Shown here piece by piece: positions 28,407 to 52,654 of a stretch of DNA of 64,000 nt. Below the pieces are notes generated by a model. The model made no database searches, was not told where the DNA came from, and worked only from the letters and a program-made list of their open reading frames with translations. Where the stretch lies: NCBI GenBank assembly GCA_902605135.1, contig CACLBK010000001.1, positions 38,583 through 102,582 on the forward strand, given 5' to 3'. Made by a program: the position numbers and the translations under genes. The DNA is from an uncultured Alphaproteobacteria bacterium (lineage in GTDB: Bacteria > Pseudomonadota > Alphaproteobacteria > HIMB59 > GCA-002718135). The number at the start of each line of letters is the position of its first letter. The stretch's first letter is position 1.

Positions 28407-29297
28407 ATGAAAATAGGTATTGATGTAGGCGGTACCAAAACTGAGGGTATTCTTCTAGATCCAAATGGAGCTGAAATAGATAGAAAAAGAATTAATACTG
28501 AAAAAAGTTATGATGGAACAATTAATGGAATACTATCCATTATAAATTACTTTGAAGATAAACATGGCAAAGCAGAGTCTGTTGGTATGGGAATGCCTGG
28601 GGCTATATCAAATGATACAGCTCTAATCAAAAATGCTAATTCTATATGGTTAAATGGTAAACCATTTAAGCAAGATTTAGATAAAATTCTTAATAGAAAA
28701 ATTAATATAGAAAATGATGCTAATTGTTTTACACTCTCTGAAGCAGTAGATGGAGCAGGTAAAGGTCATCAAGTTGTTTTTGGAGTAATTATTGGAACGG
28801 GAGTTGGTGGGGGTATTAGTATTAACCAAAAAGTTATAAGAGGGCGAAATAGTATAAGCGGGGAGTGGGGTCATATAGTACTGCCAGGTAGAACTGAAGA
28901 AGAAAAAAAATATGTAAAAAAATGTTATTGTGGGAAAAATGGTTGTTTAGAAACTTACATATCTGGTCCAGGATTTTCATCAGCTTATAACTTGCGTTTC
29001 AACAAAAACTATAATTCACATCAAATATTAGAGGGTTTTATTAATAATGAAGAAAATAGTATTTTTGCGCTTAATCAATACATTGATCATTTAGCTAGAG
29101 GTTTATCTGTGGTATGCAATATCCTTGATCCAGATGTAATCGTTTTGGGAGGTGGCATGTCCAATATAGATTTTATTTATAAAAATATAAATGATACTCT
29201 AAAAAAATATGTTTTTACTGATACACTAGAAACTAAAGTTATTAAAAATGTTTATGGCGATTCAAGTGGCGTAAGAGGTGCAGCTTGGCTTTCTTAA
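28407..29297 (+). CDS. ROK-family sugar kinase (NagK/Mak-like)
   Basis: 296 aa with GIDVGGTKTE, ENDANC, the zinc motif CYCGKNGCLETY and a C-terminal GVRGAAWL. Confidence 0.8.
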   Translation: MKIGIDVGGTKTEGILLDPNGAEIDRKRINTEKSYDGTINGILSIINYFEDKHGKAESVGMGMPGAISNDTALIKNANSIWLNGKPFKQDLDKILNRKINIENDANCFTLSEAVDGAGKGHQVVFGVIIGTGVGGGISINQKVIRGRNSISGEWGHIVLPGRTEEEKKYVKKCYCGKNGCLETYISGPGFSSAYNLRFNKNYNSHQILEGFINNEENSIFALNQYIDHLARGLSVVCNILDPDVIVLGGGMSNIDFIYKNINDTLKKYVFTDTLETKVIKNVYGDSSGVRGAAWLS

Positions 29298-30745
29298 ATA
29301 CCACCCATTGAAATATATTTTATAGTTAAATAATCATCAAGACCATAACGAGAACCTTCTCTTCCCATTCCTGATTCTTTAACTCCACCAAAAGGAACTT
29401 CCGCAATTGTTGGTAATCCATTGTTAATAGATACAATTCCATACTCAAGTGCTTCAGCAACTCTCCAAATTCTTCCTATGTCTCTTGAATAGAAATATGA
29501 AGCTAATCCGTACGGTGTATCATTAGCCATTTTAATCACTTCATCATCACTTGAAAATTTATAGAGAGGAGCAACAGGTCCAAATGTTTCTTCAAAAGTT
29601 ATTTTTGCCTTTGTAGATACATTTGAGAGAACAGTCGGTTGATAGAAATTCCCACCTAGTGAATGCACATCTCCACCAATTGCTATTTTAGCTCCTGTGT
29701 TAACTGCATCTTTGACATGATCGATTACTTTCTCTAAAGAGGATTGATCAATTAAAGGACCAGATACAATTCCATCATCAAGTCCATTACCCACTGTTAT
29801 TTTACTGACTTCATTTGTAAATTTTTCAAGGAATTCATCATAAATATTTTCATGCACAAATATTCTATTTGAACAAATACATGTTTGACCACTATTTCTA
29901 AATTTACTTTGTAGAGCACCTGTAACAGCTTCATTCATATCTGCATCATCAAAAACAATAAAGGGTGCGTGACCACCAAGTTCCATAGAAACTTTTTTTA
30001 CTGTTGAGGCACTTTGCTCTAAAAGTATTTTTCCAACCTCGGTAGATCCTGTAAAAGAAATTTTTCTTACAATTGGGTTACTTGTTAGCTCTTTGCCAAT
30101 TTCACTTGCCGATCCAGTTATTACATTAAATACACCATCTGGAAAACCGGCTTCTTTAGCAAGTACTGCTACAGCTAATGCAGAATATGGTGTTTGACTT
30201 GCAGGCTTAACGACTGTCGTACAACCAACAGCAAGAGCAGCTGCACATTTTCTTGTGATCATTGAATTTGGAAAATTCCATGGAGTTATTGCTCCTACAA
30301 CACCAACTGGTTGTTTAATTATAACAATTCTTTTTCCAGGTCTTGGATCAGGAACTATATCACCATAAACTCTTTTTGCTTCTTCAGCATAGAATTCAAT
30401 ATATGAAGCGCCCATTAGTATTTCACCCTTTGCTTCAGCCAGAGGTTTACCTTGTTCAATAGTCATGATTTTAGCTAAATCATCTGCATTTTCAGTAATG
30501 AGCTCTCCCCATTTTTTTAGAATAACTGATCTTTCTTTCGCTGTAGTTTCTTTCCAAGTTTGAAAAGCAGTATTAGCATCATCTATAGCTTTTTTAGTTT
30601 CTGAAACTGAGCATTTTGGGACATAGCCAATCATTTCAAGAGAGGCTGGATTATTGACCTCAAGAGTTTTACCTGAAGAACTGTCAACCCATTCCCCATT
30701 TATAAAACATTTTTGTTTAAAGAGTGATTTGTTATTTAATTCCAT
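29294..30745 (-). CDS. gabD: Succinate-semialdehyde dehydrogenase-like NAD(P)+ aldehyde dehydrogenase (GabD/DoeC-like)
   Basis: 483 aa with ALDH motifs ELGGHAP and GQTCICSNR. Confidence 0.82.
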   Translation of the reverse strand: MELNNKSLFKQKCFINGEWVDSSSGKTLEVNNPASLEMIGYVPKCSVSETKKAIDDANTAFQTWKETTAKERSVILKKWGELITENADDLAKIMTIEQGKPLAEAKGEILMGASYIEFYAEEAKRVYGDIVPDPRPGKRIVIIKQPVGVVGAITPWNFPNSMITRKCAAALAVGCTTVVKPASQTPYSALAVAVLAKEAGFPDGVFNVITGSASEIGKELTSNPIVRKISFTGSTEVGKILLEQSASTVKKVSMELGGHAPFIVFDDADMNEAVTGALQSKFRNSGQTCICSNRIFVHENIYDEFLEKFTNEVSKITVGNGLDDGIVSGPLIDQSSLEKVIDHVKDAVNTGAKIAIGGDVHSLGGNFYQPTVLSNVSTKAKITFEETFGPVAPLYKFSSDDEVIKMANDTPYGLASYFYSRDIGRIWRVAEALEYGIVSINNGLPTIAEVPFGGVKESGMGREGSRYGLDDYLTIKYISMGGI

Positions 30746-30788
30746 ATATTTTAATTATAATGCATAGTTTTAAATTAAGGTAAATATA

Positions 30789-31892
30789 ATGACAATAGTT
30801 AATTCTTGGAATGAATGGGATCCATTAAAACATGTTATAGTTGGAGCAGTTGAAAATGCCAACATACCTCCGATGGAACCAGCACTTGAACCGAAAATTA
30901 GTAAAGATAGTGGTATGGCAGGATCTCACGGACCACGTCCAAAGGAGTCAATTGATAAAGCAAATATACAATTAGAAAACTTTGTTAAAATTTTAAATTC
31001 CCTAAATATAAAAGTTGATAGACCAACACCTATTGACTTTTCTCAGAGTATTGAGACACCCGATTGGTCTAATGATGGTATGTTTGGTTGTATGCCTCCA
31101 AGAGATGTTATTCTTACTGTAGGAAATGAAATGCTAGAGGCGCCCATGTCTTACAGATGTAGATGGTTTGAGTACCTTGCCTATAGACCATTACTTGAAA
31201 AATATTATTCAGAAGATAAAAATATGAGATGGGAGTCGGCACCTAAACCAAGATTAACAAATCAATCTTATAAGTCTAATTATCTTCCTGAAGGAATAAC
31301 AGAAGAAGAACGATTTAAAAAAATCGAAAATAGAGACATGATATTGTCAGAAAAAGAACCACTTTTTGATGCAGCAGAAATTTTACGCTTTGGAAAAGAT
31401 CTATTTTATCATAACAATTTTACATCAAATTTAAGTGGTTTAGATTGGTTAAGAAGACATTATCCAAATCATCGCGTTCATCAAATTAATTTACCAGGTG
31501 ATTTAATACCAACTCACATTGATGCTTGTTTTACTCCTATTAAACCAGGTGTTATAATCATTAATCCGAATAGAAAAATATCATCAGAGCAAAGAAAAAT
31601 TTTTGATGATAATAAATGGGAAATTCATGAGGCAGCACCTTCCATTCATAATAGTCCACCACCTATGTGTTATTCATCTATCTGGTTATCAATGAACGTT
31701 TTGATAATTGATCCTAAAACTATATGTGTCGAGGCAACGGAAGAAAAAATGATTAAACAAATGGAAAGTTTTGGGTTAGATGTTATTCCAGTACCTTTTA
31801 GAGACGTTTATGCGTTTGGCGGAAGTTTACACTGTGCAACTACTGATGTTTATAGAGAAGGTGATTGTGAGGATTATTTTCCAAACCAATAA
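30789..31892 (+). CDS. Amidinotransferase-family enzyme (glycine/inosamine amidinotransferase-like)
   Basis: 367 aa. The N-terminal NEWDPLKHVIVG resembles AGAT/StrB1, and GGSLHCAT near the C-terminus is a catalytic-Cys context. Confidence 0.72.
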   Translation: MTIVNSWNEWDPLKHVIVGAVENANIPPMEPALEPKISKDSGMAGSHGPRPKESIDKANIQLENFVKILNSLNIKVDRPTPIDFSQSIETPDWSNDGMFGCMPPRDVILTVGNEMLEAPMSYRCRWFEYLAYRPLLEKYYSEDKNMRWESAPKPRLTNQSYKSNYLPEGITEEERFKKIENRDMILSEKEPLFDAAEILRFGKDLFYHNNFTSNLSGLDWLRRHYPNHRVHQINLPGDLIPTHIDACFTPIKPGVIIINPNRKISSEQRKIFDDNKWEIHEAAPSIHNSPPPMCYSSIWLSMNVLIIDPKTICVEATEEKMIKQMESFGLDVIPVPFRDVYAFGGSLHCATTDVYREGDCEDYFPNQ

Positions 31893-32647
31893 TGGATAGT
31901 TTTAATCAAAATAACGTTAAAGCCAATTTACATGAAACAAACTTTTCTAGAATTGGTGTAATTACACTATCAACTGATTTTACCATTGAGCAGGATTTTA
32001 GAAAAATTTGCCATAATTTACCAGTGGATCTATTTTTTAATAGGATACCTTTTTTAAATCCCCTAACCCATGAAAACTATATAAAGATGGCTGATTATAT
32101 AACAGAAACAACAAATCAAATACTACCCAATGAAAAAATACAAGTTGTAGCGTATGGATGTACTTCGGGCACTATTGAAATTGGTGAAAAAAGAATAAGA
32201 TCTGAAATTTTCAAAGCTAAACCTGATGCTTTAATTACGACACCTATTACAGCAGCTGTCAAAGCACTTAAATTGCTAAACAATAAAAAAATTGCTGTTC
32301 TTACTCCATACCCAAAAGATGTTAATGTAAAAGTTTACAACTATTTAATTGATAGTGGATTTGAAATTAAATCATTTAGTTCATTTAATTTAAACTATGA
32401 TTCGGAAATTGCCAAAGTTACTCAAGACAGTTTATTGCGAACAATTTCTTCAATTGATTTAACAGATGTAGATAGTGTTTTTGTATCTTGCACTGCTTTA
32501 AAAATAATTGATATTATTGAAAAATTAGAGTCAAAATTAAGCAGAGATATCATTTCAAGTAATCAAGCTATTATTTGGGATTCATTAAGATTATCTAATA
32601 TTAATCAAAAAATTGATGGTTTTGGTAACCTATTTAAATTACATTAA
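31892..32647 (+). CDS. Asp/Glu-racemase superfamily protein (EutA / maleate isomerase / arylmalonate decarboxylase-like)
   Basis: 251 aa with two Cys motifs, AYGCTSGT and VSCTALK. The junction with the upstream gene is TAATG. Confidence 0.7.
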   Translation: MDSFNQNNVKANLHETNFSRIGVITLSTDFTIEQDFRKICHNLPVDLFFNRIPFLNPLTHENYIKMADYITETTNQILPNEKIQVVAYGCTSGTIEIGEKRIRSEIFKAKPDALITTPITAAVKALKLLNNKKIAVLTPYPKDVNVKVYNYLIDSGFEIKSFSSFNLNYDSEIAKVTQDSLLRTISSIDLTDVDSVFVSCTALKIIDIIEKLESKLSRDIISSNQAIIWDSLRLSNINQKIDGFGNLFKLH

Positions 32648-32659
32648 ATAGGGTTTAAA

Positions 32660-33622
32660 TTGATTACACTTCAACAAATACAAGATGCACATAAGAAAAT
32701 TTTACCTTACGTTAATTATACGCCTTTAATTCATTCTAATTTTTTATCAAAAAATTCTACAGTAAAACTAAAGTTAGAAAATTTTCAAATCACTGGTTCA
32801 TTTAAATTAAGAGGTGCGGTTAATAAGCTTCTTTCTTTAAGTGAAGATGACAAAAGCAAAGGAGTCATTGCAGTTTCTACTGGCAATCACGGCAAAGGCG
32901 TTGCTTATGCTTCAAAGGTATTGGGTATTCAATCAACAATATATATGTCTTCAATGGTTCCAGAATATAGAAAAGAGGCTATTGAAAAATTAGGTGCAAA
33001 TGTAGAAATTATTGGAAAGAATAGTGATGAAGCTGATTTGCATGCTAAACAAATTGCAAAAGAAAAAAATATCCCATTAATTCACCCCTTTGATGATGAA
33101 GATATTATTATAGGCCAAGGTACAGTTGGACTTGAAATGCTTAATGAGTTTCCTGAAGTTGATACTGTAATTATCCCAACATCTGGAGGTGGCCTTATAT
33201 CTGGAATTGCTCAGGCAATTAAACTTCAAAAACCTGAGACAAAAATTATTGCTGTATCTATGGAAAGAGGTCCTTCAATGTATGAAAGTCTAAAAGAGGG
33301 CAAACCTGTTGATGTAGAGGAAACTGAAACTTTAGCTGATTGTTTAGGGGGTAGTATTGGTCTAGATAATAAATTTACATTTAATATTGTACAAAAATAC
33401 GTAGATGACTTTGTTTTAGTGAGTGAAGAAAAAATAGCCGAGGGAATTAGAATAAATTTTTTAGAACATAAAATTGTTTCTGAAGGTGCTGCAGCAACGA
33501 GTGTTATGGTCGTTAAAGAAAAACTCACATCACATTTAGGTAAAAATATAATCTGTTTAATTTGTGGTGGAAATATTGACTCGGAACTATTTAACAAAGT
33601 TTTAAGCCATGCTCATCCTTAA
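32660..33622 (+). CDS. Threonine/serine dehydratase-like fold-II PLP enzyme (EutB-like)
   Basis: 320 aa, TTG start. It has the PLP-lysine motif GSFKLRGA and a GGGLISG glycine loop. Confidence 0.8.
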   Translation: MITLQQIQDAHKKILPYVNYTPLIHSNFLSKNSTVKLKLENFQITGSFKLRGAVNKLLSLSEDDKSKGVIAVSTGNHGKGVAYASKVLGIQSTIYMSSMVPEYRKEAIEKLGANVEIIGKNSDEADLHAKQIAKEKNIPLIHPFDDEDIIIGQGTVGLEMLNEFPEVDTVIIPTSGGGLISGIAQAIKLQKPETKIIAVSMERGPSMYESLKEGKPVDVEETETLADCLGGSIGLDNKFTFNIVQKYVDDFVLVSEEKIAEGIRINFLEHKIVSEGAAATSVMVVKEKLTSHLGKNIICLICGGNIDSELFNKVLSHAHP

Positions 33623-34583
33623 TAAAAGTGATATTATTCAATATGTAGATTTGAATAAAAATCTCATTCCAATAATAGAAGACGCGTTTAATAGTTTATC
33701 AAAGGGATTGGTAATGATGCCACCTATAATGAGAATTGATATTGAAAAATATCATGGTGAATCAGATGTTAAAGCTGCATACGTTGAAGGTCTTGATAGT
33801 TTTGCAATAAAAATTGCTTCAGGTTTTTTTGATAATCCAAAACTTGGTTTACCATCTAGTAATGGACTGATGGTTTTATTAGATTCAAAGACTGGAGTTG
33901 TAAAATCTGTTTTATTAGATGAAGGTTATCTTACAGATACTAGAACAGCTATAGCAGGTGCAATAGCTACAAAATATTTATCAAATCAAAATGCTAATTC
34001 TGTTGGTATTATTGGAGCTGGAATTCAAGCCAAATTACAACTTCAAGCAATAATGTTAGTTAGAAAAATAAATAAAATTATAGTCTGGACAAGAGATGAG
34101 ACAAAAGCGAACCAATTTATAAAAAGTTTCAAAAATTTAGATATAGATTTGTATATAGCTTCTTCTTGCAAAGAATTGGCAAGCTTATCAGAAATAATTG
34201 TTACAACAACTCCTAGTAAAAAACCGCTTTTGGAATTTGATTGGATAAATAAAGGAACTCACATAACAGCAATGGGATCAGATTCAGAACAAAAAAATGA
34301 ATTAGATCCTCATATGTTAAAACATTGCGATCAATATGTGCCTGACAATCAATTACAAACAAGTGTTTTGGGTGAATTACATCATGCTTTAAAACAAAAT
34401 ATAATTTCTTCCAAAGAAAAATTTAATGAACTTGGCGATATAATTAATGATCCAAGCTTAGGAAGAAAAAATAAAGAAGATATAACGATATGTGATTTGA
34501 CAGGAACTGGCGTACAAGATACTGCAATAGCTAGATTTGCTTATAATCTTTGTAAAAAAAATAACTTAGGCATCAATATTTAA
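33609..34583 (+). CDS. Ornithine cyclodeaminase / mu-crystallin family protein (EutC-like)
   Basis: 324 aa with the Rossmann motif GIIGAGIQA. It overlaps the upstream gene by 14 nt. Confidence 0.8.
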   Translation: MLILNKSDIIQYVDLNKNLIPIIEDAFNSLSKGLVMMPPIMRIDIEKYHGESDVKAAYVEGLDSFAIKIASGFFDNPKLGLPSSNGLMVLLDSKTGVVKSVLLDEGYLTDTRTAIAGAIATKYLSNQNANSVGIIGAGIQAKLQLQAIMLVRKINKIIVWTRDETKANQFIKSFKNLDIDLYIASSCKELASLSEIIVTTTPSKKPLLEFDWINKGTHITAMGSDSEQKNELDPHMLKHCDQYVPDNQLQTSVLGELHHALKQNIISSKEKFNELGDIINDPSLGRKNKEDITICDLTGTGVQDTAIARFAYNLCKKNNLGINI

Positions 34584-34586
34584 TTT

Positions 34587-36029
34587 ATGAGTCAAGAAAT
34601 AATAAAAAAAACGTCTGATTATTTCAAATCAAAAGGAGTTGTCTTACCTAGTATAAGTGAACTTCAAGATCCTCAAATTATTAATGATGATATTAAAAAA
34701 TCTCTAAAAAAAATAAATAATAATGATATCAATCCTCTTAACCTATTTAGAGTTCATTGGTTTAATAAAAGAGACCAATCAGGTTTTGGAAATGAGCCTG
34801 AATATATTGTGCTTCCAACAGAATTCACAGGTGTAAAGGCAAAGATAATTGTAAATATGGGACGATATTTTCCCTTAATAACAGCTCATAAAGTTTTGGC
34901 AGCTTATGGTTGTTTGCTTCCAAGAATATTGAATGGCACTTTTGATTATGAAAAACATAAAGCAGTTTGGCCTTCAACAGGAAATTATTGTAGGGGTGGA
35001 GTGGCAATATCTAGGATAATGGGTCTTAATAGTATTGCAATACTTCCTGAAGGAATGAGTAATGAGAGATTTGAATGGTTGAATAATTGGGTTGAAGATA
35101 AAAAAAATATCATAAAGACAAAAGGAACAGAAAGTAATGTTAAAGAAATCTACGATGCTTGTAATGAATTAAAAAAAGATAATCAAAATGATATAATAAA
35201 TCAATTTGATGAGTATTATAATTACGGTATTCATCGTTCTGTAACTGGTCCATCGTTTGAAAAATCATTTCTTAAAGTTAAAGGTAGCAGTAATTTAACT
35301 CCTAGGTTTTACGTGAGTGCTTCAGGATCAAGTGGTACTCTAGCAGCAGGAGATTATCTTAAAGATAAATTACAGACGAAGATTGCAGTTGTTGAAGCTT
35401 TGGAGTGTCCAACATTGCTTCATGGAGGTTATGGTGAACATAATATACAAGGAATTGGTGACAAACATGTTCCCCTTATTCATAATGTAATGAATACAGA
35501 TTTTGTTGTAGATGTTTCTGATCAAGCTACCAATAATCTAAATATGATTTTTAATACTGAAATAGGAAAAAATTTTTTAATTGAGAAAAAAAATTTTGAC
35601 CCTGATTTTGTTTCTCGTCTTCCTGAATTTGGTTTTTCAGCAATAGCAAATATATTGGCATCAATAAAGCTAGCTAAATATATGGATTTAAATAGTGATG
35701 ACGCAATTATAACGGTTGCTACTGATGGTGCTGATTTATATATGTCAGAATTAAACAAGACCATTACTGATTTTAAAAATAATTATGATGAAATAGTTTG
35801 TGCTGAATTATTTGGACAACATTTATCGGGAGTATCTACCGATAATATGCTTGAACTCTCTCACATGGATAAGAAAAGAATATTTAATTTAGGTTACTTT
35901 ACTTGGGTAGAGCAACAAGGTGTTAGTCTTGAAGAATTTGAAAAAAGAAAAGATCAAAAATTTTGGAATTCACATTATGATTATATGCTTTCTCTAGACA
36001 ATCAGATTAAAGAATTTAATAATATGTAG
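34587..36029 (+). CDS. Long fold-type II PLP-dependent enzyme (cysteine synthase/Trp-synthase-beta-like)
   Basis: 480 aa. STGNYCRGGVAISRIMGLNSIAILPEGMS aligns by eye to the SSGNxG...MPE block of the family, and ASGSSGTLAAG to the glycine loop. Confidence 0.6.
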   Translation: MSQEIIKKTSDYFKSKGVVLPSISELQDPQIINDDIKKSLKKINNNDINPLNLFRVHWFNKRDQSGFGNEPEYIVLPTEFTGVKAKIIVNMGRYFPLITAHKVLAAYGCLLPRILNGTFDYEKHKAVWPSTGNYCRGGVAISRIMGLNSIAILPEGMSNERFEWLNNWVEDKKNIIKTKGTESNVKEIYDACNELKKDNQNDIINQFDEYYNYGIHRSVTGPSFEKSFLKVKGSSNLTPRFYVSASGSSGTLAAGDYLKDKLQTKIAVVEALECPTLLHGGYGEHNIQGIGDKHVPLIHNVMNTDFVVDVSDQATNNLNMIFNTEIGKNFLIEKKNFDPDFVSRLPEFGFSAIANILASIKLAKYMDLNSDDAIITVATDGADLYMSELNKTITDFKNNYDEIVCAELFGQHLSGVSTDNMLELSHMDKKRIFNLGYFTWVEQQGVSLEEFEKRKDQKFWNSHYDYMLSLDNQIKEFNNM

Positions 36030-36032
36030 GTT

Positions 36033-37187
36033 ATGAAAACTCAGTCATTACATAACCAATTAGTAGAATGGCGTCATGATCTTCATATGCACCCTCAAAT
36101 AAGTTTTGAAGAAGAATATGCTGCAGCAAAAGTGTCAACACTTCTAAAAGAGTTTGGAATAGAAGTTCATACTGGTATTGCCAGAACTGGAGTAGTTGGA
36201 ATTTTAAAAAAAGGAAATAGTTCAAAATCAATAGGTATAAGAGCTGACATAGATGCTCTTCCTATACATGAAACTAATAATTTTAGTTATAAGTCAAAGT
36301 TTGATAACAGAATGCATGCATGTGGACATGATGGTCACACTACAATGTTATTAGGTGCAGCAAAATATCTATCAGAAAAAGGTAACTTTAATGGAACAGT
36401 ATATTTTATTTTTCAACCTGATGAAGAGAATACTTTTGGCGCAAGAACAATGATAGATGAAGGTTTGTTTGATAAATTTAATATTGATGAAGTTTACGCT
36501 ATGCACAACATTCCTAATATGGAAATTGGAACGTTTGGTACAAGAAAAGGAGCTATTACAGCAAGTGAAAATTTATTTGAAATTGAAATAAAAGCCAAAG
36601 GTGGGCATGCTGCATTACCTCATATGGGCGTTGATGCAATAACTGTTGGTTCCCAAATAGCTGTAGCACTCCAATCAATAGTATCTAGAAAATTAAACCC
36701 AGCAGATAATGGTATAGTTTCTATTACTGAATTTATAACTGATGGTAAAAAAAATGTTTTGCCAGGTATGGTAAAAATGACTGGTGACGCAAGAGCTTTA
36801 TCAAAAGAAACGAATGAAAAAATTGCTTCAAAAATGTTACAAATTGTTGAAGGCATTTGTAATGCACATGGAGTTAATGGCAGTGTAAAATATGAAACAA
36901 CCTGTCCTGTAACTTTTAATTCAAACAACCAAACTGAGTCTGCCACAAAAGCTGCAGTTTCATTACTTGGAAGCAATAAATGTAATGGTGATATTGAACC
37001 GCGTTTATTCTCAGAAGATTTTTCTGTTATGGCAAACGAAAAACCTGGCTGCTTTGTTTTAATGGGTAACGGTAAATCAGATCAACATTCCAGACCATTA
37101 CATGCTGATAATTATGATTTTAATGACGAATTATTAGTCATAGGTTCTTCATATTGGACAGAATTAGTAGAACAACAATTAAAATAA
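36033..37187 (+). CDS. M20-family amidohydrolase (N-acyl-amino acid / hippurate hydrolase-like)
   Basis: 384 aa with the metal motifs MHACGHDGHT and FQPDEE. Confidence 0.85.
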   Translation: MKTQSLHNQLVEWRHDLHMHPQISFEEEYAAAKVSTLLKEFGIEVHTGIARTGVVGILKKGNSSKSIGIRADIDALPIHETNNFSYKSKFDNRMHACGHDGHTTMLLGAAKYLSEKGNFNGTVYFIFQPDEENTFGARTMIDEGLFDKFNIDEVYAMHNIPNMEIGTFGTRKGAITASENLFEIEIKAKGGHAALPHMGVDAITVGSQIAVALQSIVSRKLNPADNGIVSITEFITDGKKNVLPGMVKMTGDARALSKETNEKIASKMLQIVEGICNAHGVNGSVKYETTCPVTFNSNNQTESATKAAVSLLGSNKCNGDIEPRLFSEDFSVMANEKPGCFVLMGNGKSDQHSRPLHADNYDFNDELLVIGSSYWTELVEQQLK

Positions 37188-38342
37188 ATGTTTTCTGAAA
37201 ACTTAAATAAACTAAAGAAAAAAATGTCTGAGAATAATATTGATCTCTCAATTATAACAGATGATGATTCTATATATTATTTTACAGGATATCACGACTT
37301 CCTTCATATGGATTTTAATCGACCAACATTATTAGTTGTTTCAAATGATCATAAAACTTACTTAATTACACCTCTACTTGATGTTTTATTAGTTCCCGAA
37401 ACTTGTCCTGTTGACAAAGTCGAAACATGGAATGATGGTATTGGAAATGAATGGAGAGAATTATTACCACAAATTATAAATCAGCATAAAAATATTTTTA
37501 TTGAAAAATTTAAAATAAATTCAATGGTTAAAAGTTATTTAGATGAAATACTTCAACATGATCCTGGCGATTTAACAAAATTAATAAATAATATAAGAAT
37601 GATTAAATCCAATCATGAATTGAATATTGCTCGCCATGCTGGAGAGGTAGGTATGGCTATGATGGAAGCAGCTAAAAAAACAATTGGTAATAATGTTCCT
37701 GAATATGAGGTTGCACTTGCTCAATCACAAGCTGGAACAAGAAAAGCTGCAGAGCTTTTAAAAAAATTTTATCCTGATAATATCAATATGTCTCCAAATA
37801 TTCACTTTTTACCTGTTATGACATCAGGTCATGATTTACCTAAAACTCACCATCGTGCTTCAACCAAAATTATAAAAAAAGGTGATCCCGTATTCGTATG
37901 TTATTGTGGTTCAACAAATTTCCACAGGTTTAAATTAGGATTTGACAGAATATTTTGGGTTGAAGAAATTCAATCTAAAGAACAGATAAAAGCTTTTGAA
38001 ACTGCAGTTAAATCTCAAAAAGCCGCTCTTGATATTCTTGGCCCTGGAGTAACAGCTGAAGAAGTTCATGCTGCTTATGCTGATGCTATACAGTCTGAAG
38101 GATATCCCTATCCTACATTTCGATGTGGAAGAGGAACTGGTTTTAGTTTTTTAGAAGAACCACAATTAGTAGTTGGAAATAAAACTGTTTTAAAGCCTGG
38201 CATGGTATTTGCAGTAGACGGAGGAGCTAGTGCAAATAAATTTAGATCACAGGTTGGTGATAGTTTTATAATTACAGAGGATGGATATGAGCAAATTACA
38301 CATCATTCTAAAAAATTTGAAGATTTGATTCTTTCAAATTAA
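37188..38342 (+). CDS. M24 'pita-bread' fold hydrolase (Xaa-Pro peptidase/creatinase-like), degenerate metal site
   Basis: 384 aa with a creatinase-like N-domain and an M24 C-domain. It starts 1 nt after the M20 gene stop. Confidence 0.72.
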   Translation: MFSENLNKLKKKMSENNIDLSIITDDDSIYYFTGYHDFLHMDFNRPTLLVVSNDHKTYLITPLLDVLLVPETCPVDKVETWNDGIGNEWRELLPQIINQHKNIFIEKFKINSMVKSYLDEILQHDPGDLTKLINNIRMIKSNHELNIARHAGEVGMAMMEAAKKTIGNNVPEYEVALAQSQAGTRKAAELLKKFYPDNINMSPNIHFLPVMTSGHDLPKTHHRASTKIIKKGDPVFVCYCGSTNFHRFKLGFDRIFWVEEIQSKEQIKAFETAVKSQKAALDILGPGVTAEEVHAAYADAIQSEGYPYPTFRCGRGTGFSFLEEPQLVVGNKTVLKPGMVFAVDGGASANKFRSQVGDSFIITEDGYEQITHHSKKFEDLILSN

Positions 38343-38366
38343 TTGTGACTAAATAACTCTTGTTTC

Positions 38367-38399
38367 AATAGTTAAAATATTTTACTCTAATTAACTATT
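38367..38399. repeat. Perfect 9-bp inverted repeat AATAGTTAA-N15-TTAACTATT upstream of soxB (candidate operator or hairpin)
   Basis: Read directly in the 75-bp spacer between the M24 gene and soxB. It is AT-rich, so a chance occurrence is possible. Confidence 0.3.
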
Positions 38400-38417
38400 C
38401 AATAATTAAATAAATAA

Positions 38418-39683
38418 ATGACAAAATTTAATGCATGGAACGTAATTAAAAATGGATTAAATGGTCAATCATATTGGACTAGGCAATGGCGTGATCCGGA
38501 ACCAAAAAAAAATTATGATGTTATAATAATTGGTGGAGGCTTACACGGACTTGCCACTGCATATTATCTTGCGAAAAATCATAATATTAAAAATGTAGCA
38601 GTTGTGGAAAAAGGTTGGATCGGGGGAGGAAACGCTGGACGTAACACGACTATTGTAAGATCAAATTATATGATGCCAGGGAATCATGAATTTTATGAGC
38701 ACTCTTTAAAATTATGGGAAAATTTAAGTCATGATTTAAATTACAATGTAATGTTTAGTCAACGAGCTCACGTTTCATTGTTTCACAGTCCTGGTGCTAA
38801 AGATTCTGTTTCAAGAACATATAATATTATGAGGCTTCATGGAACAGATGCTGAGCTTTGGGATTTAACAAAACTTAAGAAAAAAATACCTCATCTAAAT
38901 TATAATAATTCCAGATTTCCTATTTTAGGAGCGGCTGTCCAAAAAAGAGCAGGCAATGCAAGACATGATGCAGTTGCATGGGGATATGCAAGAGCTGCTG
39001 ATACACTCGGTGTAGATATTCTACAAAATTGTGAAGTAACAGGTTTCACAAGAACAAATGGAATGATTGAAAGTGTTCAAACTTCAAGAGGAATTATAAA
39101 AGGAAAGAAAATAGGATTTGCTGTTGCTGGCAATACTTCAGTATTATGGCAAATGGCAGAATTAGGCAACCTACCAATTGAGTCTCATAAATTACAAGCA
39201 TTTGTATCTGAAGCAGTAAAACCACTTCTAGATCAGGTTGTTGTTTACGGTGTGGGGGGTGCACATTTCTATATATCTCAGTCTGATAAAGGAAGTATGG
39301 TGTTTGGTGGGGATCTTGATTGGTATAAATCATATGCGCAAAGAGGAAATCTGCCTATGGTTCAAGATGTTGCTGAAGCAGCTATGGCAATATTTCCTTC
39401 ACTTGGTAGAATTAGATTACTCCGTCATTGGGCAGGAGTCATGGATATGACAATGGATGGATCATTTTTTATTTGTAAAACGCCAATATCTAATCTCTAT
39501 TTAAATGCTGGTTGGAACTATGGAGGTTTTAAGGCTAGTCCCGCATCAGGCTGGTATTTTGCTGACTTAATTGCAAATGAGAGCCCACACATTTACGTAC
39601 AGAATCATAATTTAGAGAGATTTGAAAAAGGTATCAACATAGATGAACGTGGTGCTGGACCTGATCCTAAATTGCACGGTTAA
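38418..39683 (+). CDS. soxB: Heterotetrameric sarcosine oxidase, beta subunit
   Basis: 421 aa with the FAD motif VIIIGGGLHGLATAYYLA, followed by soxD, soxA and soxG in canonical order. Confidence 0.9.
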   Translation: MTKFNAWNVIKNGLNGQSYWTRQWRDPEPKKNYDVIIIGGGLHGLATAYYLAKNHNIKNVAVVEKGWIGGGNAGRNTTIVRSNYMMPGNHEFYEHSLKLWENLSHDLNYNVMFSQRAHVSLFHSPGAKDSVSRTYNIMRLHGTDAELWDLTKLKKKIPHLNYNNSRFPILGAAVQKRAGNARHDAVAWGYARAADTLGVDILQNCEVTGFTRTNGMIESVQTSRGIIKGKKIGFAVAGNTSVLWQMAELGNLPIESHKLQAFVSEAVKPLLDQVVVYGVGGAHFYISQSDKGSMVFGGDLDWYKSYAQRGNLPMVQDVAEAAMAIFPSLGRIRLLRHWAGVMDMTMDGSFFICKTPISNLYLNAGWNYGGFKASPASGWYFADLIANESPHIYVQNHNLERFEKGINIDERGAGPDPKLHG

Positions 39684-39968
39684 ATGATTAGAATCAATTG
39701 TCCTTATTGTGGTGAAAGAGATCATAGTGAATTTAGTTACGGAGGAGATGCTACAATAAAATATCCTTCTTTAGACTCTTCTGAAAAAGAATGGACTAAA
39801 GCAATATTTTTTAGAAAAAATATCAAAGGTTTTCAATTAGAAACATGGCATCATACTAATGGATGTAGAATGTGGTTAGAGATTGAACGCTCAACAGTAA
39901 CTCATGAAATTAGAAGTGTGAAACCCTGTCATCCAGATTTAAAGAAAGTTGTAGAAAATAATAAATGA
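39684..39968 (+). CDS. soxD: Sarcosine oxidase delta subunit
   Basis: 94 aa with the zinc-ribbon-like CPYCGERDHSEF. Confidence 0.88.
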   Translation: MIRINCPYCGERDHSEFSYGGDATIKYPSLDSSEKEWTKAIFFRKNIKGFQLETWHHTNGCRMWLEIERSTVTHEIRSVKPCHPDLKKVVENNK

Positions 39969-42922
39969 AACCAAGTAGATTAAAAAATTATGGAAAAATT
40001 AATAGAAATAATGTTTTATCTTTTACTTGGGATAATAAAAAATATAAAGGTTTCGAAGGTGATACACTAGCATCAGCATTGCTAGCTAATAATATTGGAG
40101 TTGTTGGAAGAAGTTTTAAATATCACAGACCAAGAGGAATATTTTCAAGTGGGGTTGAGGAATCTGGAGCTTTAGTAACTGTAGGATTAAAAGATAGAAG
40201 AGATCCTAATGTAAGGGCAACTACTCAAGAATTATATGATGGTTTAAAAGCAAGTGGTCAGAATGCCTTCCCCAATGTAAATTTTGATCTTGCTGGAATT
40301 AATAATTATTTAGGTAGGTTTTTTGCATCTGGTTTTTATTATAAAACTTTTATGGGAATACCACCTTTTGAATGGGGAAAGGGTACAGCTATATGGATGT
40401 TTTTTGAAAAGTTTATAAGGAAAGCAGCTGGAATGGGAAGTGCTTCTACATTACCTGATCCAGATTCTTACGAACACGCACACGATTTTTGTGATGTAAT
40501 TATTGTAGGTTCAGGACCATCAGGTATTGCAGCCGCAATTGAGGCAGCAGAGAAAAAATTAGATGTTATTTTAGTAGAGCAAGACAGTATTATTGGAGGA
40601 GATCAACTTTCAGAATATGAATTTGATAGCTCACATATTGAAAATCAAATTAAAAACCTTGGTATAAAAGTAATGACTAGGACAACAGCATTTGGATTAT
40701 ACGATAATTGTGTTGTTGGTTTATTGGAAAGAGTAACAGACCATTTATCGTTACCAGATAAAACACTACCACGTCAAAGATTTTGGACTATTAGAGCTAA
40801 ACATATAATTGTTGGTGCGGGAGCAATAGAAAGACATATTGCATTTAATAATAATGATATTCCTGGCGTAATGACAGTGAATGCTTCAAAGCATTATTTA
40901 AATAGATATGGAGTACTAACAGGTAAAAAAATTGTAATTTCTACAAATAATGATTCTGTTTATGAAACTGCAGAACTATTATCTGAAGCTGGAGCAAATG
41001 TTACTGTTCTTGACTCACGAACCAATTTTGAAATTGAAACCAACACAACTTTTGAAATTAGAAGAGGGTATGTGCCTTATAATATTAATGGTTCAAAAAA
41101 AATTGATAGTTTAGACATATCAAAAAGTGAAAATATTAATAAATCTGAAACAATAAATTGTGATCAAGTTTTATTATCAGGTGGTTGGTCTCCTGCAGTA
41201 CATTTGTTATCGCATAGAGGTGTAAAGCCTAAATGGGATTATGAAAATGCATGTTTTTTACCGAGTGATACCAAAGAGAATATTACAATGATAGGTTCTT
41301 CGAGAGGATTATGGAATAAAAATGATTGTATTGCTTCTGGAGTTGCGGGTGCTACTGATGCATTGAATCGTTTAGGTATTTCGAAAACAAATTATTTTTT
41401 TCCAAAACCTGGTGGATGGAAAAATCCAATAAAACCACTTTACGAAGTAAAATATAAAAAATCTAGATCAAAAAGTTTTGTAGATTATCAACACGATGTA
41501 ACTTCAGATGATGTACGACTGGCACACCGTGAAGGTTTCATATCAGTAGAACATCTTAAAAGATATACAACTTTGGGTATGGCTAATGATCAGGGAAAGA
41601 TGGGAAACATTATTGGATTATCCTTAATGGCTGATCTTTTAAATAAAGAAATTCCAGAAGTTGGAACGACTGTATTCAGACCTCCTTATACTCCAGTTTC
41701 TATTGGAGCTTTAAGTGGAAGAAATGTTGGAAAACATTTTAGACCATTAAGAGTTACACCAATGCATCAATGGAATATTGATCATGGTGCTAAGATGATT
41801 GAAGTAGGTTTGTATCAAAGACCTTGGTATTATCCTAAAGAAAATGAAACATTAAGCGACTCTTATATTAGAGAAGCAACAACAGTAAGGAAAACAGTTG
41901 GAATTTGTGATGTTACTTCACTAGGTAAAATTGCTATTCAAGGACAAGACTCTACCGAATTTTTAAATAGAATCTATTCAAATGGTTTTTCAAAACTCCA
42001 AGTTGGAAAAGCTAGATACGGTATCATGTTACGTGATGACGGTATTGTAATGGATGATGGCACATCTTGGAGATTAGCAGAAAATGAATATTTTATGACA
42101 ACTTCTACAGGTGAAGCTGCAAAAGTAATGTCATGGTTAGAAGAATTACTACAAACTAGATGGACAAATCTTAGTGTTAATGTGACTAGTGTTTCAGAAC
42201 AATGGGCAGGCGTATCAGTTGCAGGACCTAAATCTAGAGAAGTTCTTAATAATTGTGTCGTTGATTCTTCAGTTGTAACTAATAATAACTTACCTTTTAT
42301 GGGTGTTACCTCAACTTTTCTTAAAGGTAAAATTCCTTGTAGAATTGCAAGAATTAGTTTCTCAGGTGAATTAGCTTTTGAAGTTTATGTTAAATCAGAT
42401 TTTGCCAATACAATGATGGACCTACTTTGGGAAAATGCAAAAAAATATGATGGGTGTTTATATGGATTAGAGGCTTTGGGGGCACTTAGAGTAGAAAAAG
42501 GTCATGTGACAGCTGCAGAGCTTGATGGAAGGGTAACAATTGATGATGCAGGTTTAAGCAAAATGGCTTCTACAAAAAAATCATATATTGGAAGTGCAAT
42601 GAGAAAACGAGGAGTATTAAAAAATAATGATCGAGAAGTTTTAGTAGGTTTCTTTCCTGCAAACTTAAAGGAAACTTTTAATGCCGGAACTATTGTGTGC
42701 GAAAAAAATAATATTAAAGGACAAGGTATTGGAAGAATTACTTCAGTCACTTATTCTCCGGAACTTAGACATTGGATTGGAATAGGTTTTGTAAAAGGCG
42801 GTTTATATAGATGGAAAGATACTACTTTAGTTGGTGCTGATCCTGTAAGAAATAAACAAATGAATTTAAAAATTGTTTCACCACATATGGTAGATCCAAA
42901 AGGGGAAAAAATGCATGCTTAG
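39965..42922 (+). CDS. soxA: Sarcosine oxidase alpha subunit
   Basis: 985 aa with the dinucleotide motif VIIVGSGPSGIAAA and a C-terminal GcvT-like folate-binding domain. It overlaps soxD at ATGA. Confidence 0.9.
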   Translation: MKPSRLKNYGKINRNNVLSFTWDNKKYKGFEGDTLASALLANNIGVVGRSFKYHRPRGIFSSGVEESGALVTVGLKDRRDPNVRATTQELYDGLKASGQNAFPNVNFDLAGINNYLGRFFASGFYYKTFMGIPPFEWGKGTAIWMFFEKFIRKAAGMGSASTLPDPDSYEHAHDFCDVIIVGSGPSGIAAAIEAAEKKLDVILVEQDSIIGGDQLSEYEFDSSHIENQIKNLGIKVMTRTTAFGLYDNCVVGLLERVTDHLSLPDKTLPRQRFWTIRAKHIIVGAGAIERHIAFNNNDIPGVMTVNASKHYLNRYGVLTGKKIVISTNNDSVYETAELLSEAGANVTVLDSRTNFEIETNTTFEIRRGYVPYNINGSKKIDSLDISKSENINKSETINCDQVLLSGGWSPAVHLLSHRGVKPKWDYENACFLPSDTKENITMIGSSRGLWNKNDCIASGVAGATDALNRLGISKTNYFFPKPGGWKNPIKPLYEVKYKKSRSKSFVDYQHDVTSDDVRLAHREGFISVEHLKRYTTLGMANDQGKMGNIIGLSLMADLLNKEIPEVGTTVFRPPYTPVSIGALSGRNVGKHFRPLRVTPMHQWNIDHGAKMIEVGLYQRPWYYPKENETLSDSYIREATTVRKTVGICDVTSLGKIAIQGQDSTEFLNRIYSNGFSKLQVGKARYGIMLRDDGIVMDDGTSWRLAENEYFMTTSTGEAAKVMSWLEELLQTRWTNLSVNVTSVSEQWAGVSVAGPKSREVLNNCVVDSSVVTNNNLPFMGVTSTFLKGKIPCRIARISFSGELAFEVYVKSDFANTMMDLLWENAKKYDGCLYGLEALGALRVEKGHVTAAELDGRVTIDDAGLSKMASTKKSYIGSAMRKRGVLKNNDREVLVGFFPANLKETFNAGTIVCEKNNIKGQGIGRITSVTYSPELRHWIGIGFVKGGLYRWKDTTLVGADPVRNKQMNLKIVSPHMVDPKGEKMHA

Positions 42923-43478
42923 ACATTCAGCGTTAGATACAATTTATAAAGTTGGAAAATATTCATCAAGTAAAAAAAAATCATTAACATTTAAAGAATT
43001 AAAAAGTTTAGAATTTTTACAAATTACTTGTTGGCCTGACAAAATTGATGAAATAAATAATTTATTAATAAAAAAATTAAAAATTAAAAATATTCCAGGT
43101 TTCAATAAAGGGATTTTGTTTGAAAATAAATCATTATGGAGAATGGAGCCCTTGAAATGGTGGTTATTTAATAAAGAAATTGAAGTAAGTGAGCAAATAG
43201 CAACAATTTTAGATATGTCTCATGCTTTCACAGGTATTGAAATCAAAGGAGATAATTCATCATTATTTTTAAATAGACATCTTCCGATTGATTTAAGAGC
43301 TGGAAATTTTCCAGATTTATCATCCGCTAGCACAGCTATGCATCATGTAAGTGTTAAGCTATTTAAAATATCCTCAAATAACTACTGTTTATTTATACCA
43401 AGAGGTTTTGCTTTATCAATTTGGGAGATGCTTCTTGAAACAGCAGATCAGTTTGGATATGAAGTATTAGAGAGATAG
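42915..43478 (+). CDS. soxG: Sarcosine oxidase gamma subunit
   Basis: 187 aa. Its position after soxA and its size support the call; it overlaps soxA by 8 nt. Confidence 0.78.
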   Translation: MLRHSALDTIYKVGKYSSSKKKSLTFKELKSLEFLQITCWPDKIDEINNLLIKKLKIKNIPGFNKGILFENKSLWRMEPLKWWLFNKEIEVSEQIATILDMSHAFTGIEIKGDNSSLFLNRHLPIDLRAGNFPDLSSASTAMHHVSVKLFKISSNNYCLFIPRGFALSIWEMLLETADQFGYEVLER

Positions 43479-43497
43479 AAAGATTATCTAAAAAATT

Positions 43498-44673
43498 ATG
43501 ATATTTTCACAAGATGAATTTAATTCAAGAATTGCAAAAGTAAAACAGTCTATGAATAAAAGAGGTGTTGATATTCTATTAACTACCGATCCCTCTAATA
43601 TGAATTATCTAACTGGTTATGATGGGTGGTCATTTTATGTTCCACAAGGAGTAATAATTTCTATAGATGAAGATCAGCCATTTTGGTTTGGAAGAAAGCA
43701 AGATTCGAATGGAGCTAGGATTACAACTTTTTTAAATGAAGAAAATATATTTGGTTATCCTGAGCAACTAATTCAATCACCACCATTACATCCATATGAT
43801 TATGTAGTTGAATTATTTAAAGACAAAAATTGGTCAAGTAAAAATATTGGCGTTGAAATGGATAGCTATTATTATACTGCAGAAAATCATAGGAGATTAA
43901 AAGATAATTTAACAAATGCTAAATTTATTAATGCGCATCTTCTAATTAATTGGGTTAGATATGTAAAATCTGAAAATGAAATAAAATTCATGAAAGATGC
44001 TGGCACACTTGTGAAAGGAGGAATGGAAACAGCATTTGATTCAATAAAAGAAGGTGTAAAACAAAGTACAGTTGCAGGAAAAATTCAAAATACTCTCATT
44101 GCTGGAAATGACACAACACAAATGGGAGGAGAATATTCAGGCTTAGGTATAATACTTGCAAGTGGGAGATCAGCATCAGCATCACACTTAACTCCTAGTG
44201 ATAAAAAATTTGAAAATAATGAAGGAACAATTATTGAATTAGGTGGCGTGAAACATCGTTATCACTGTGCTTTATCCAGAACTGTGTATATTGGTAAACC
44301 TGATCCAAAGATATCGGATACATTAAAAATAACAAATGAAGGTATTGAGAAAGCTTTAGAACAAACAAATCCAGGTAATAGTTGTCATAATGTTGCTGTT
44401 GCTTTTTGGTCAGTATTAGAAAAATATGGATTAGAAAAAGAGTCAAGAGCTGGTTACTCAATTGGTATTGGTTATCCTCCTGATTGGGGAGAACACACCC
44501 TTAGTATCCGGAAAAATGAAAAGACACTTTTAGAACCTAATGTTACCTATCATCTTATGTGTGGAATGTGGATGGATACATGGGGATTAGAACTAAGTGA
44601 ATCAGTTAGGGTAACAGAGTCAGGTTATGAATTACTTACTCAAGTCCCTAGAGATTTGCATATAATAAATTAA
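43498..44673 (+). CDS. M24-fold hydrolase of the ectoine hydrolase (DoeA/EutD) / creatinase type
   Basis: 391 aa with a creatinase-type N-domain. The GYSIGIGYPPDWGEHT and GMWMDTWGLELSE blocks match my memory of DoeA-like proteins. Confidence 0.72.
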   Translation: MIFSQDEFNSRIAKVKQSMNKRGVDILLTTDPSNMNYLTGYDGWSFYVPQGVIISIDEDQPFWFGRKQDSNGARITTFLNEENIFGYPEQLIQSPPLHPYDYVVELFKDKNWSSKNIGVEMDSYYYTAENHRRLKDNLTNAKFINAHLLINWVRYVKSENEIKFMKDAGTLVKGGMETAFDSIKEGVKQSTVAGKIQNTLIAGNDTTQMGGEYSGLGIILASGRSASASHLTPSDKKFENNEGTIIELGGVKHRYHCALSRTVYIGKPDPKISDTLKITNEGIEKALEQTNPGNSCHNVAVAFWSVLEKYGLEKESRAGYSIGIGYPPDWGEHTLSIRKNEKTLLEPNVTYHLMCGMWMDTWGLELSESVRVTESGYELLTQVPRDLHIIN

Positions 44674-45386
44674 TCATTTGCATCACCACCTCCAGCACCT
44701 TTGGCTCTAGATTCCTCTGATTCAGGTACAAAAGTTCTAAAAGCTATCTTAGATATTTGATCCCAAGATTTTTTATCAGGATTTATGCCTTCAGATAGCA
44801 AATTATTTATATTTGATGATGGAATATTAATATCTAACTTTTGATCATTTAAAATATTTTTTGTAAGTAAAAGATCAAAATTTCTTTGATAATTTGTAGA
44901 GATAATATCTCTATTAATACTAATATTTTTATTTGTTATTTGAGCATCAACTTTTTGATCTAACAAAAACTGTGAATTGATATTTTTTTTTGCATACTTA
45001 TAAAGCAAAGGTATTAGGAATATGGGATCATTGCAATTTTTTAAAGTTAATTTTAAATTTTCTTTTTTATCTACTTTTGATATTAAATAATCAATTAATC
45101 CTGGCCCTATCATTAATGAAGACTTATTATTACAATCAAACTCATCATTTATATTTGATGGATTTATGCTGGCATTAAAAGTGTTATCTAATTCTTTAAT
45201 TTTTAATGTTAATAATTTGATTCCGTCTAAACCAAGTATTTCAAGCCAAGTTGTAATAAATGCAGCATCTTCATCTGATCCATATGTGAACCCTAATCCT
45301 GAAAAAGCTCGCTGTGAATTAGTGTAAACTTCATAGTAAGAGTAACTCACAGATATTAATATGAATTCATTGTTGCAAAACCCCAT
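44670..45386 (-). CDS. Hypothetical protein, 238 aa, no recognised family
   Basis: Long intact ORF in stop-rich AT DNA, coupled to the upstream 554-aa gene. The start is uncertain: ATG 45386 gives a 31-nt overlap, and GTG 45350 lies 5 nt after the upstream stop. Confidence 0.55.
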   Translation of the reverse strand: MGFCNNEFILISVSYSYYEVYTNSQRAFSGLGFTYGSDEDAAFITTWLEILGLDGIKLLTLKIKELDNTFNASINPSNINDEFDCNNKSSLMIGPGLIDYLISKVDKKENLKLTLKNCNDPIFLIPLLYKYAKKNINSQFLLDQKVDAQITNKNISINRDIISTNYQRNFDLLLTKNILNDQKLDINIPSSNINNLLSEGINPDKKSWDQISKIAFRTFVPESEESRAKGAGGGDAND

Positions 45387-48966: not shown

Positions 48967-48987
48967 GCATCATTACAAATATTTAAT

Positions 48988-51311: not shown

Positions 51312-51342
51312 GCTTGATAATTTAAATTTACTATTTTAATAT

Positions 51343-51374: not shown

Positions 51375-51385
51375 AGGAGGATTGT

Positions 51386-52651: not shown

Positions 52652-52654
52652 TTT

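Follow-up and report, generated by a model that had tools for sequence, protein, structure and literature searches.

Among the nitrogen-rich osmolytes that plankton release in abundance are ectoine and hydroxyectoine; in the literature searched, the marine organisms known to consume these two are roseobacters, vibrios, and halomonads. The canonical eut/doe cluster, as found in Phaeobacter, encodes EutA, EutB, EutC, EutD (DoeA), and EutE (DoeB) along with the diaminobutyrate transaminase Atf (DoeD), the aldehyde dehydrogenase (ALDH) Ssd (DoeC), EnuR, AsnC, and Usp. In Ruegeria, EutABC are required for hydroxyectoine. A different arrangement is described for putative clusters of Bacillota and Thermodesulfobacteriota, which contain 'abgB' and two eutD homologues, and no eutE (PMC13188858). 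Here we consider a 64,000-nucleotide (nt) stretch of DNA from an uncultured alphaproteobacterium (contig CACLBK010000001.1; the window hereafter), in which homologues of EutA, EutB, EutC, and EutD lie within an island of catabolic genes. The best explanation, held at about even confidence, is that this region represents the SAR11 form of the ectoine/5-hydroxyectoine utilisation island, rebuilt and modular. The island comprises the following genes:

29294..30745, minus strand: GabD-type NAD(P)-dependent succinate-semialdehyde dehydrogenase (TIGR01780)
30789..31892, plus strand: AGAT-family amidinotransferase (PDB match 1jdw)
31892..32647, plus strand: EutA-like protein of the Asp/Glu/hydantoin racemase superfamily (Amdase/EutA-like; TIGR02990)
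32660..33622, plus strand: EutB-like pyridoxal phosphate (PLP) dehydratase of the threonine-dehydratase family (PRK07476, TIGR02991)
33609..34583, plus strand: EutC-like NAD(P) enzyme of the ornithine cyclodeaminase (OCD)/mu-crystallin family (PRK08291, TIGR02992)
34587..36029, plus strand: PLP480, a 480-residue cysK-like fold-type II PLP enzyme (cysK-related, far below the cut-off)
36033..37187, plus strand: M20D N-acyl-amino-acid amidohydrolase (TIGR01891)
37188..38342, plus strand: M24a, an M24 hydrolase lacking metal ligands (Pfam Peptidase_M24 and Creatinase_N)
38418..43478, plus strand: soxBDAG, heterotetrameric sarcosine oxidase family (NCBIfam subunit models)
43498..44673, plus strand: M24b, an EutD/DoeA-like homologue of ectoine hydrolase (6twk, TIGR02993)

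Families were assigned from Pfam matches, NCBIfam model scores (in bits, against the cut-off of the model), and sequence matches to PDB entries; absences of other pathway genes are stated for the 64 kb of the window. An earlier annotation made from the letters alone (the sequence-only reading) had given open reading frame coordinates, junction lengths, and a 43-bp distance to the divergent ALDH gene, all of which are exact. Its family calls for the seven-gene run, soxBDAG, and the second M24 gene are upheld by the model and structure matches.

Eut homologues and their gene order in SAR11

Four proteins of the island have EutA, EutB, EutC, and DoeA as their top named NCBIfam families, with wide gaps to the next family. 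The EutA-like protein scores 212 bits on TIGR02990 (cut-off 318; next family 84) and is 37% identical to Phaeobacter EutA. The best families for the EutB-like protein are the EutB models PRK07476 (380 bits) and TIGR02991 (351 bits; cut-offs 413); it is 45% identical to Phaeobacter EutB and contains the SFKLRG lysine motif. The EutC-like protein, 46% identical to its Phaeobacter counterpart, exceeds the cut-off of PRK08291 (451.6 versus 408) and falls below that of TIGR02992 (411.6 versus 471.65). M24b matches the solved DoeA structure 6twk (E=1.3e-108), is 44% identical to Phaeobacter DoeA, and reaches 462 of the 613 bits that TIGR02993 requires (next family 176). Canonical control proteins score 424 (EutA), 549 (EutB), 575 (EutC), and 811 (DoeA) on the NCBIfam models; against these values, the window proteins are clearly nearest to the Eut and Doe families, and divergent members of them. 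This agrees with the sequence-only reading, which had proposed an EutABC triad accompanied by a DoeA-like hydrolase. The latter is present, but it is M24b, not the M24 protein encoded inside the run.

A concatenated query of EutA, EutB, EutC, and M24b matches annotated eutA-eutB-eutC-doeA genes, in that order, in 230 plasmid records (~44% identity, 97–99% coverage), including Sinorhizobium meliloti pSymB, Phaeobacter, and Leisingera. An ornithine cyclodeaminase drawing on ornithine from the amidinotransferase was considered for the reading frame at 33609–34583 and rejected on its score of 112 bits on NF005762, the model for true OCD (cut-off 350).

Homologues of EutA, EutB, EutC, and EutD thus stand in the same relative order as in Phaeobacter, at 37–46% identity, and an ALDH of the succinate-semialdehyde dehydrogenase family lies nearby in both. 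The differences are substantial, however. The window lacks EutE, Atf, EnuR, AsnC, and Usp; its eutD is 8.9 kb from eutC, with the fold-type II PLP enzyme, M20, the other M24 gene, and soxBDAG in between; an amidinotransferase gene directly precedes eutA; the ALDH is GabD-type; and eutD is optional among SAR11 lineages.

The seven-gene run occupies 30789–38342 on the plus strand, with junctions of -1, +12, -14, +3, +3, and 0 nt. Next come soxB, after +75 nt, and the remaining sox genes at junctions of 0, -4, and -8 nt, followed by M24b at +19 nt; the start of the divergent ALDH gene is 43 bp from that of the amidinotransferase gene. The sequence-only reading had listed this tight spacing. Across the whole window, 44 of the 55 same-strand junctions measure 12 nt or less (median 1 nt). 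Close packing is therefore the norm here; operon-like spacing is no evidence for a shared pathway and was dropped as an argument for an operon. Conservation of gene order in relatives, on the other hand, is real evidence for linkage.

Gene order in Pelagibacterales, which the sequence-only reading had proposed as a check, bears the island out. Twelve SAR11 contigs were compared (the window, L001, L009–L012, L093, and L095–L099), with proteins 55–98% identical to those of the window. The order ALDH (minus strand), then AGAT, EutABC, PLP480, M20, M24a, and sox, is kept in contigs whose proteins are 55–80% identical to the window's. EutABC and PLP480 occur together in all 12 (for PLP480, by construction of the search). 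Other parts come and go: ALDH and AGAT are jointly absent from L097, and M24a and sox are absent from L009. Horizontal transfer was rejected as an account of the island: its GC content (0.30–0.34) is similar to that of the flanks and the rest of the window, no mobile element was recognised, and deep SAR11 lineages have it in the same position.

The earlier statement that no transporter adjoins the genes is true of the window, but sister SAR11 lineages carry EhuABCD within the run. In L097 (4591–9997) and L098 (4588–9998), EhuABCD and a BisC-family molybdenum S/N-oxide reductase lie between eutC and PLP480. The binding protein exceeds the EhuB equivalog cut-off (292 versus 190.9 bits). Aligned with ectoine-bound EhuB (2q88; E=1.5e-80), it retains the Glu, the Arg, and the three aromatic residues of the binding site. 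This transporter, lying inside the run itself, is what most favours ectoine as the substrate. Published work annotates ectoine/hydroxyectoine transporters in marine SAR11 genomes and, among cultured SAR11, lists the EhuB gene in HTCC7211 only. The BisC-family reductase of L097 and L098 is predicted to be cytoplasmic.

These observations suggest a route for ectoine and hydroxyectoine. Import would proceed through Ehu where present, and through another osmolyte transporter in this strain. The tetrahydropyrimidine ring would be opened to N-alpha-acetyl-(hydroxy)diaminobutyrate by an M24 hydrolase, for which the candidate is M24b or possibly, in lineages without it, M24a. The M20D amidohydrolase would take off the acetyl group in EutE's stead, and EutABC would process the hydroxylated intermediates, as in Ruegeria. 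Diaminobutyrate, in the absence of Atf, could pass via a housekeeping transaminase and the GabD-type ALDH or, less likely, via PLP480 acting as a lyase.

If this pathway variant works, SAR11, the sea's most numerous heterotroph, would be a major sink for ectoines. Three uncharacterised enzymes (the PLP480 family, a metal-free M24 protein, and a bacterial AGAT with an altered lid) are moreover found here in a defined context, which in some lineages includes a named transporter alongside, and the island bears on the actual role of EutABC.

Relatives contain further genes at specific positions within the island. In most, a proline-racemase-family gene lies between M24a and soxB, where the window has a 75-nt spacer (38343–38417):

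L010, 13750–14769: proline-racemase-family gene between M24a and soxB
L012, 13752–14777: proline-racemase-family gene in the same position
L093 and L095–L099: proline-racemase-family gene in the same position

The product scores highest on the model for trans-3-hydroxy-L-proline dehydratase (416 bits versus 550). The predicted protein and the EutC-like reductase could form a pair for dehydration and reduction of a hydroxy-imino acid. In L095 (8515–9954) and L096 (6975–8414), the M20 gene is absent and an extra ALDH gene, betaine-aldehyde-dehydrogenase-like, lies between eutC and PLP480. The extra enzyme suggests that an aldehyde is formed after the EutC step and before the PLP step. The L095/L096 lineage also encodes a GntR(FCD) regulator and an Ehu-like ATPase downstream of soxG. 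A DmdA-like aminomethyltransferase gene stands in the place of M24b after soxG in L097 (20013–21134) and L099 (20038–21159), followed by an EamA gene; its product scores 393 bits on the model for dimethylsulfoniopropionate demethylase (cut-off 410).

The enzymes that differ from the canonical cluster

M20D matches three models equally well: the general amidohydrolase model TIGR01891 (320.6 bits versus a cut-off of 153.75), CpsA (315), and the M20-type DoeB2 model NF038260 (314 versus 550). Its HACGHDGH metal motif is present. The M20 and M24a genes abut at 0 nt, as do eutD and eutE in canonical clusters. The sequence-only reading suggested that the M20 enzyme stands in for DoeB, and the idea has precedent in the DoeB2 model and the 'abgB' clusters; M20D is a plausible candidate for the role of EutE/DoeB. 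The 'abgB' clusters, and the NCBIfam DoeA_2/DoeB2 families, likewise are without eutE, with an M20 gene in its place and two eutD-like M24 genes. The clusters differ from the island in retaining Atf and in carrying thrA/adh and a PucR regulator, and they are not reported with AGAT, sox, or a 480-residue PLP enzyme. The proteins themselves differ also: besides the low DoeB2 score of M20D, M24a reaches 54 bits on DoeA_2.

M24a was considered as DoeA and as creatinase; it is not DoeA-like, and its fit to creatinase is poor. Its PDB matches, all distant, are led by prolidase (78 bits), followed by creatinase (1chm, 58) and DoeA (39); it is 21% identical to DoeA and scores 61 bits on TIGR02993. All five metal ligands are replaced in alignment with 1pv9 (D209C, D220G, H284R, E313D, and E327G). 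In L020, an alphaproteobacterium outside SAR11, an orthologue with 54% identity is encoded immediately ahead of soxBDAG. Identical copies of M24a are encoded in GCA_902613275.1, a single-cell genome from the sea, and in marine assemblies, those of Tara among them; on this basis the window is assigned to Pelagibacterales (SAR11).

The sequence-only reading described the ALDH as both GabD-like and DoeC-like, and the first description is the better supported. The protein exceeds the TIGR01780 cut-off (723.5 versus 646), which canonical Ssd fails, and it is 59–61% identical to annotated plasmid gabD products versus 49% for the Ssd of the Phaeobacter ectoine cluster. It is best classed as GabD-type rather than Ssd/DoeC-type.

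PLP480 was tried as a cysteine synthase, CBS, or SbnA and rejected, its scores lying far below each cut-off (cysK, 72 versus 351; CBS, 25 versus 510; SbnA, 24 versus 350). The best PDB matches are cysteine synthases (1e-13), over residues 127–387 only. N- and C-terminal extensions of ~100 residues each are conserved in the family, which keeps the PLP lysine K102, the PSTGNY substrate loop, and the GS(S/G)GT phosphate loop. A first homologue search returned SAR11-type relatives only (at least 75% identity), and distant relatives came from a search of representatives. A GTDB scan, queried with an alignment of six sequences, found relatives at ~50% identity in at least 595 species. As a sign of how abundant the island's genes are, a single 90%-identity cluster of PLP480 contains 2215 member sequences.

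The neighbours of PLP480 outside SAR11 are of a different kind. Among 76 such loci, a threonine-synthase-like PLP enzyme is encoded directly downstream in 50; further neighbours are an 8-oxoguanine-deaminase-like (SsnA-like) amidohydrolase (26 loci), an XDH-like molybdenum enzyme (24), a carbamoyltransferase (17), and a carbamate kinase (11). The non-SAR11 loci (L014–L088) come from Actinomycetota, Chloroflexota, Acidobacteriota, and others. By analogy with the YgeW/X/Y pathway, these neighbourhoods suggest a cluster for degradation of purines or other N-heterocycles. The reductive uric-acid pathway ends with the M20 deacylase YgeY and then YgeX, a fold-type II PLP ammonia-lyase that acts on a diamino acid (PMC12990295). 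Neighbouring M20 and fold-type II PLP enzymes are common to that pathway, where they act after the N-heterocyclic ring is opened, and to the window. PLP480 is cysK-like, however, and not YgeX-like, so that the likeness is one of gene context alone. PLP480 is predicted to be an enzyme of the beta-elimination or beta-replacement type that recurs in N-heterocycle catabolic clusters. That it replaces the transaminase step, as the sequence-only reading had it, is unlikely; what stands behind this idea is a complementary distribution and an analogy.

On two Rhizobiales plasmids (L089, Bosea; L090, Rhizobium), PLP480 is encoded near a TauE/SafE sulfite exporter; the Bosea plasmid also encodes RidA, a gamma-glutamyltransferase, and a thiamine pyrophosphate enzyme close by. 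In those hosts, the context may indicate a sulfonated alanine, or one with another beta substituent, as the substrate.

Alternative substrates and pathways

A number of observations weigh against ectoine as the substrate. The EutA-, EutB-, and EutD-like proteins all score below their equivalog cut-offs, and hence the SAR11 proteins could be paralogues with a related substrate. Several expected components were sought in the whole window and not found: tblastn with Phaeobacter DoeB gave no match at E<=1e-3; Phaeobacter Atf likewise had no match; no homologue of EnuR, AsnC, or UehA is encoded; and neither Ehu nor Ueh is present as a dedicated transporter. The ALDH, being closer to GabD than to Ssd, is a weakened candidate for DoeC. 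Among the 12 contigs, M24b is present in five and missing from its position in seven that retain EutABC, and EutABC also remain in the two that lack M20 (L095 and L096). The PLP480 family as a whole resides mostly in purine-like contexts rather than ectoine ones, and no scheme for ectoine makes use of AGAT, despite its adjacency to eutA. Finally, a literature search found no report of, or experiment on, ectoine catabolism in SAR11; the predicted capacity for ectoine-type breakdown would be new to this group as far as that search extends.

Much of this would fit an island that degrades a related nitrogen-rich solute (for example, another N-acylated or cyclic diamino acid), its Eut-like proteins being paralogues. 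The core would then consist of EutABC, PLP480, and M24a/M20, with the DoeA-like gene an optional add-on, in keeping with the low Eut scores and with the seven contigs that dispense with this gene. Four other Alphaproteobacteria (L020, Hoeflea, Actibacterium, and a Rhodobacteraceae isolate) provide further support. In each, PLP480 adjoins an Ehu-like transporter; a BisC-like reductase, as in L097 and L098, follows PLP480 in the latter three; and distant M24s, M20, EutA-like genes, and AsnC surround it in varying combinations. None of the four loci contains Atf, DoeB, or Ssd. They thus share a module (Ehu-like transporter, PLP480, BisC-type molybdenum reductase, threonine-synthase-like PLP enzyme, distant M24s, M20, and EutA-like protein) whose binding protein, at 169–174 bits, is below the EhuB cut-off. 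The SAR11 binding protein, however, passes that cut-off and keeps the ectoine-binding residues, and no known family is closer to the four Eut-like proteins. A different solute is somewhat unlikely.

The island might instead be a mosaic of independent catabolic modules, brought side by side only by the near-absence of intergenic DNA in SAR11. The modules would be AGAT with GabD; EutABC; PLP480 with M20; M24a with the racemase and sox; and the DoeA-like gene. Each is independently present or absent among the SAR11 contigs, PLP480 relatives occur in many unrelated contexts, and the packing of the entire window is what this explanation expects. Chance adjacency is harder to reconcile with an order kept over deep SAR11 divergence and, in part, in other Alphaproteobacteria. 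It also sits poorly with the Ehu transporter, whose insertion in mid-run, between eutC and PLP480, ties the two halves of the run together. We consider the mosaic unlikely.

The remaining alternative centres on the amidinotransferase and sarcosine oxidase genes. The amidinotransferase has no Pfam or NCBIfam model match. Its closest structural match is human AGAT (1jdw, E=5e-77, ~40% identity over 352 aligned columns), ahead of SxtG, HsvA, and StrB1. Alignment to 1jdx indicates that the catalytic residues Asp254, His303, and Cys407 are kept, as are the guanidino and carboxylate ligands D170, D305, R322, and S355; two lid residues are altered (N300 to I, M302 to T). The protein therefore resembles GATM/AGAT, CyrA, and SxtG in full-length identity (~40%), in its triad, and in its arginine/ornithine-binding residues, and departs from GATM/AGAT in the lid. 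Unlike GATM, CyrA, and SxtG, it is encoded in a catabolic gene run of a streamlined heterotroph, away from methyltransferase or toxin genes; no methyltransferase gene lies nearby to indicate the product. It is a genuine amidinotransferase, active-looking and of the arginine/ornithine type. Its gene overlaps eutA by 1 nt and adjoins eutA in 11 of the 12 SAR11 contigs. The closest homologue found outside SAR11, in Photobacterium (49%), has no Eut-like neighbours. A search of the literature on SAR11 or Pelagibacter with amidinotransferase or guanidinoacetate found nothing on this island.

The sox genes follow the order B, D, A, G of the heterotetrameric sarcosine oxidase set. SoxB exceeds its cut-off (607 versus 529 bits), and SoxA, with Fer2_4, SO_alpha_A3, and GCV_T (folate) domains, falls 6 bits short (1158 versus 1164). 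SoxD (101 versus 116.5) and SoxG (49 versus 144) belong to the right families, below the cut-offs. Two sarcosine oxidase operons are reported for SAR11 (PMC9321204). Most likely, soxBDAG encodes a true sarcosine oxidase that yields glycine and shares the location of the other genes but not their pathway.

The sequence-only reading had offered a second interpretation, in which AGAT, OCD, a creatinase-fold enzyme, and sarcosine oxidase form a guanidino-compound route. In its fullest form, AGAT would work backwards, moving the amidino group of guanidinoacetate, creatine, or 4-guanidinobutyrate to ornithine and so releasing glycine, sarcosine, or GABA along with arginine; M24a would be a creatinase-like amidinohydrolase, sarcosine oxidase would produce glycine, and GabD would oxidise the GABA-derived semialdehyde. 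SAR11 requires an external glycine source. Creatinase, like M24a, is metal-free, and known routes pair creatinase with heterotetrameric sarcosine oxidase; here too, a Creatinase_N-type M24 protein without metal ligands is encoded directly upstream of soxBDAG, an arrangement found also in the non-SAR11 genome noted above. AGAT retains its triad and arginine/ornithine ligands, and is gained or lost together with the GabD-type ALDH (L097). Field isotope data, moreover, show creatine labelled from sarcosine (PMC9321204).

Of this interpretation, AGAT has proved real. The OCD-like protein is EutC-type, not an ornithine cyclodeaminase, and M24a is distant from solved creatinases, with a score no closer to creatinase than to prolidase. 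AGAT occurs without sox and M24a in L009, and sox and M24a without AGAT in L097. In relatives, an enzyme that acts on a chiral centre (proline-racemase-like or EutA-like) is encoded between M24a and soxB, and creatine would have no need of it. The guanidino route also leaves EutA, EutB, PLP480, M20, and the DoeA-like protein without a role. It is improbable.

Least probable is that the SAR11 AGAT, with its altered lid, directly interconverts sarcosine and creatine (arginine + sarcosine <-> ornithine + creatine). Were it true, AGAT would be the enzyme, unidentified in the field study, behind the labelling of creatine from sarcosine rather than glycine (PMC9321204), and SAR11 could recover the nitrogen of creatine or guanidinoacetate in the form of arginine, with no need of urea or urease.

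Neighbouring regions

Two genes on the minus strand (44670–47020) converge on M24b with a 4-nt overlap. They encode a DUF3726 protein (238 residues) and a 554-residue protein without Pfam or NCBIfam match, overlap each other, and are kept as a pair in L012.

A second catabolic block spans 47075–63187. It encodes an M19 dipeptidase, an EamA exporter, a PotA-type ABC transporter with an SBP_bac_8 binding protein, a D-amino-acid-dehydrogenase-like flavoprotein, a luciferase-like monooxygenase, an alpha/beta hydrolase, three further ALDHs, and a glutamine-synthetase-like (gamma-glutamylputrescine-synthetase-like) protein. This content suggests polyamine or amine use. A paralogue of the window's downstream ABC transporter is encoded directly after M20 in L009.

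An Rfam search for riboswitches or leader RNAs found a single tRNA (24047–24130), upstream of mgtE, and nothing else; promoter and terminator scans gave results at or below shuffled expectation and were uninformative. At the other end of the window, positions 1–23353 contain very large reading frames (579 and 1372 residues) and then a long series of short ones. Judged by size and order, this segment looks like rpoB/rpoC and ribosomal-protein operons.

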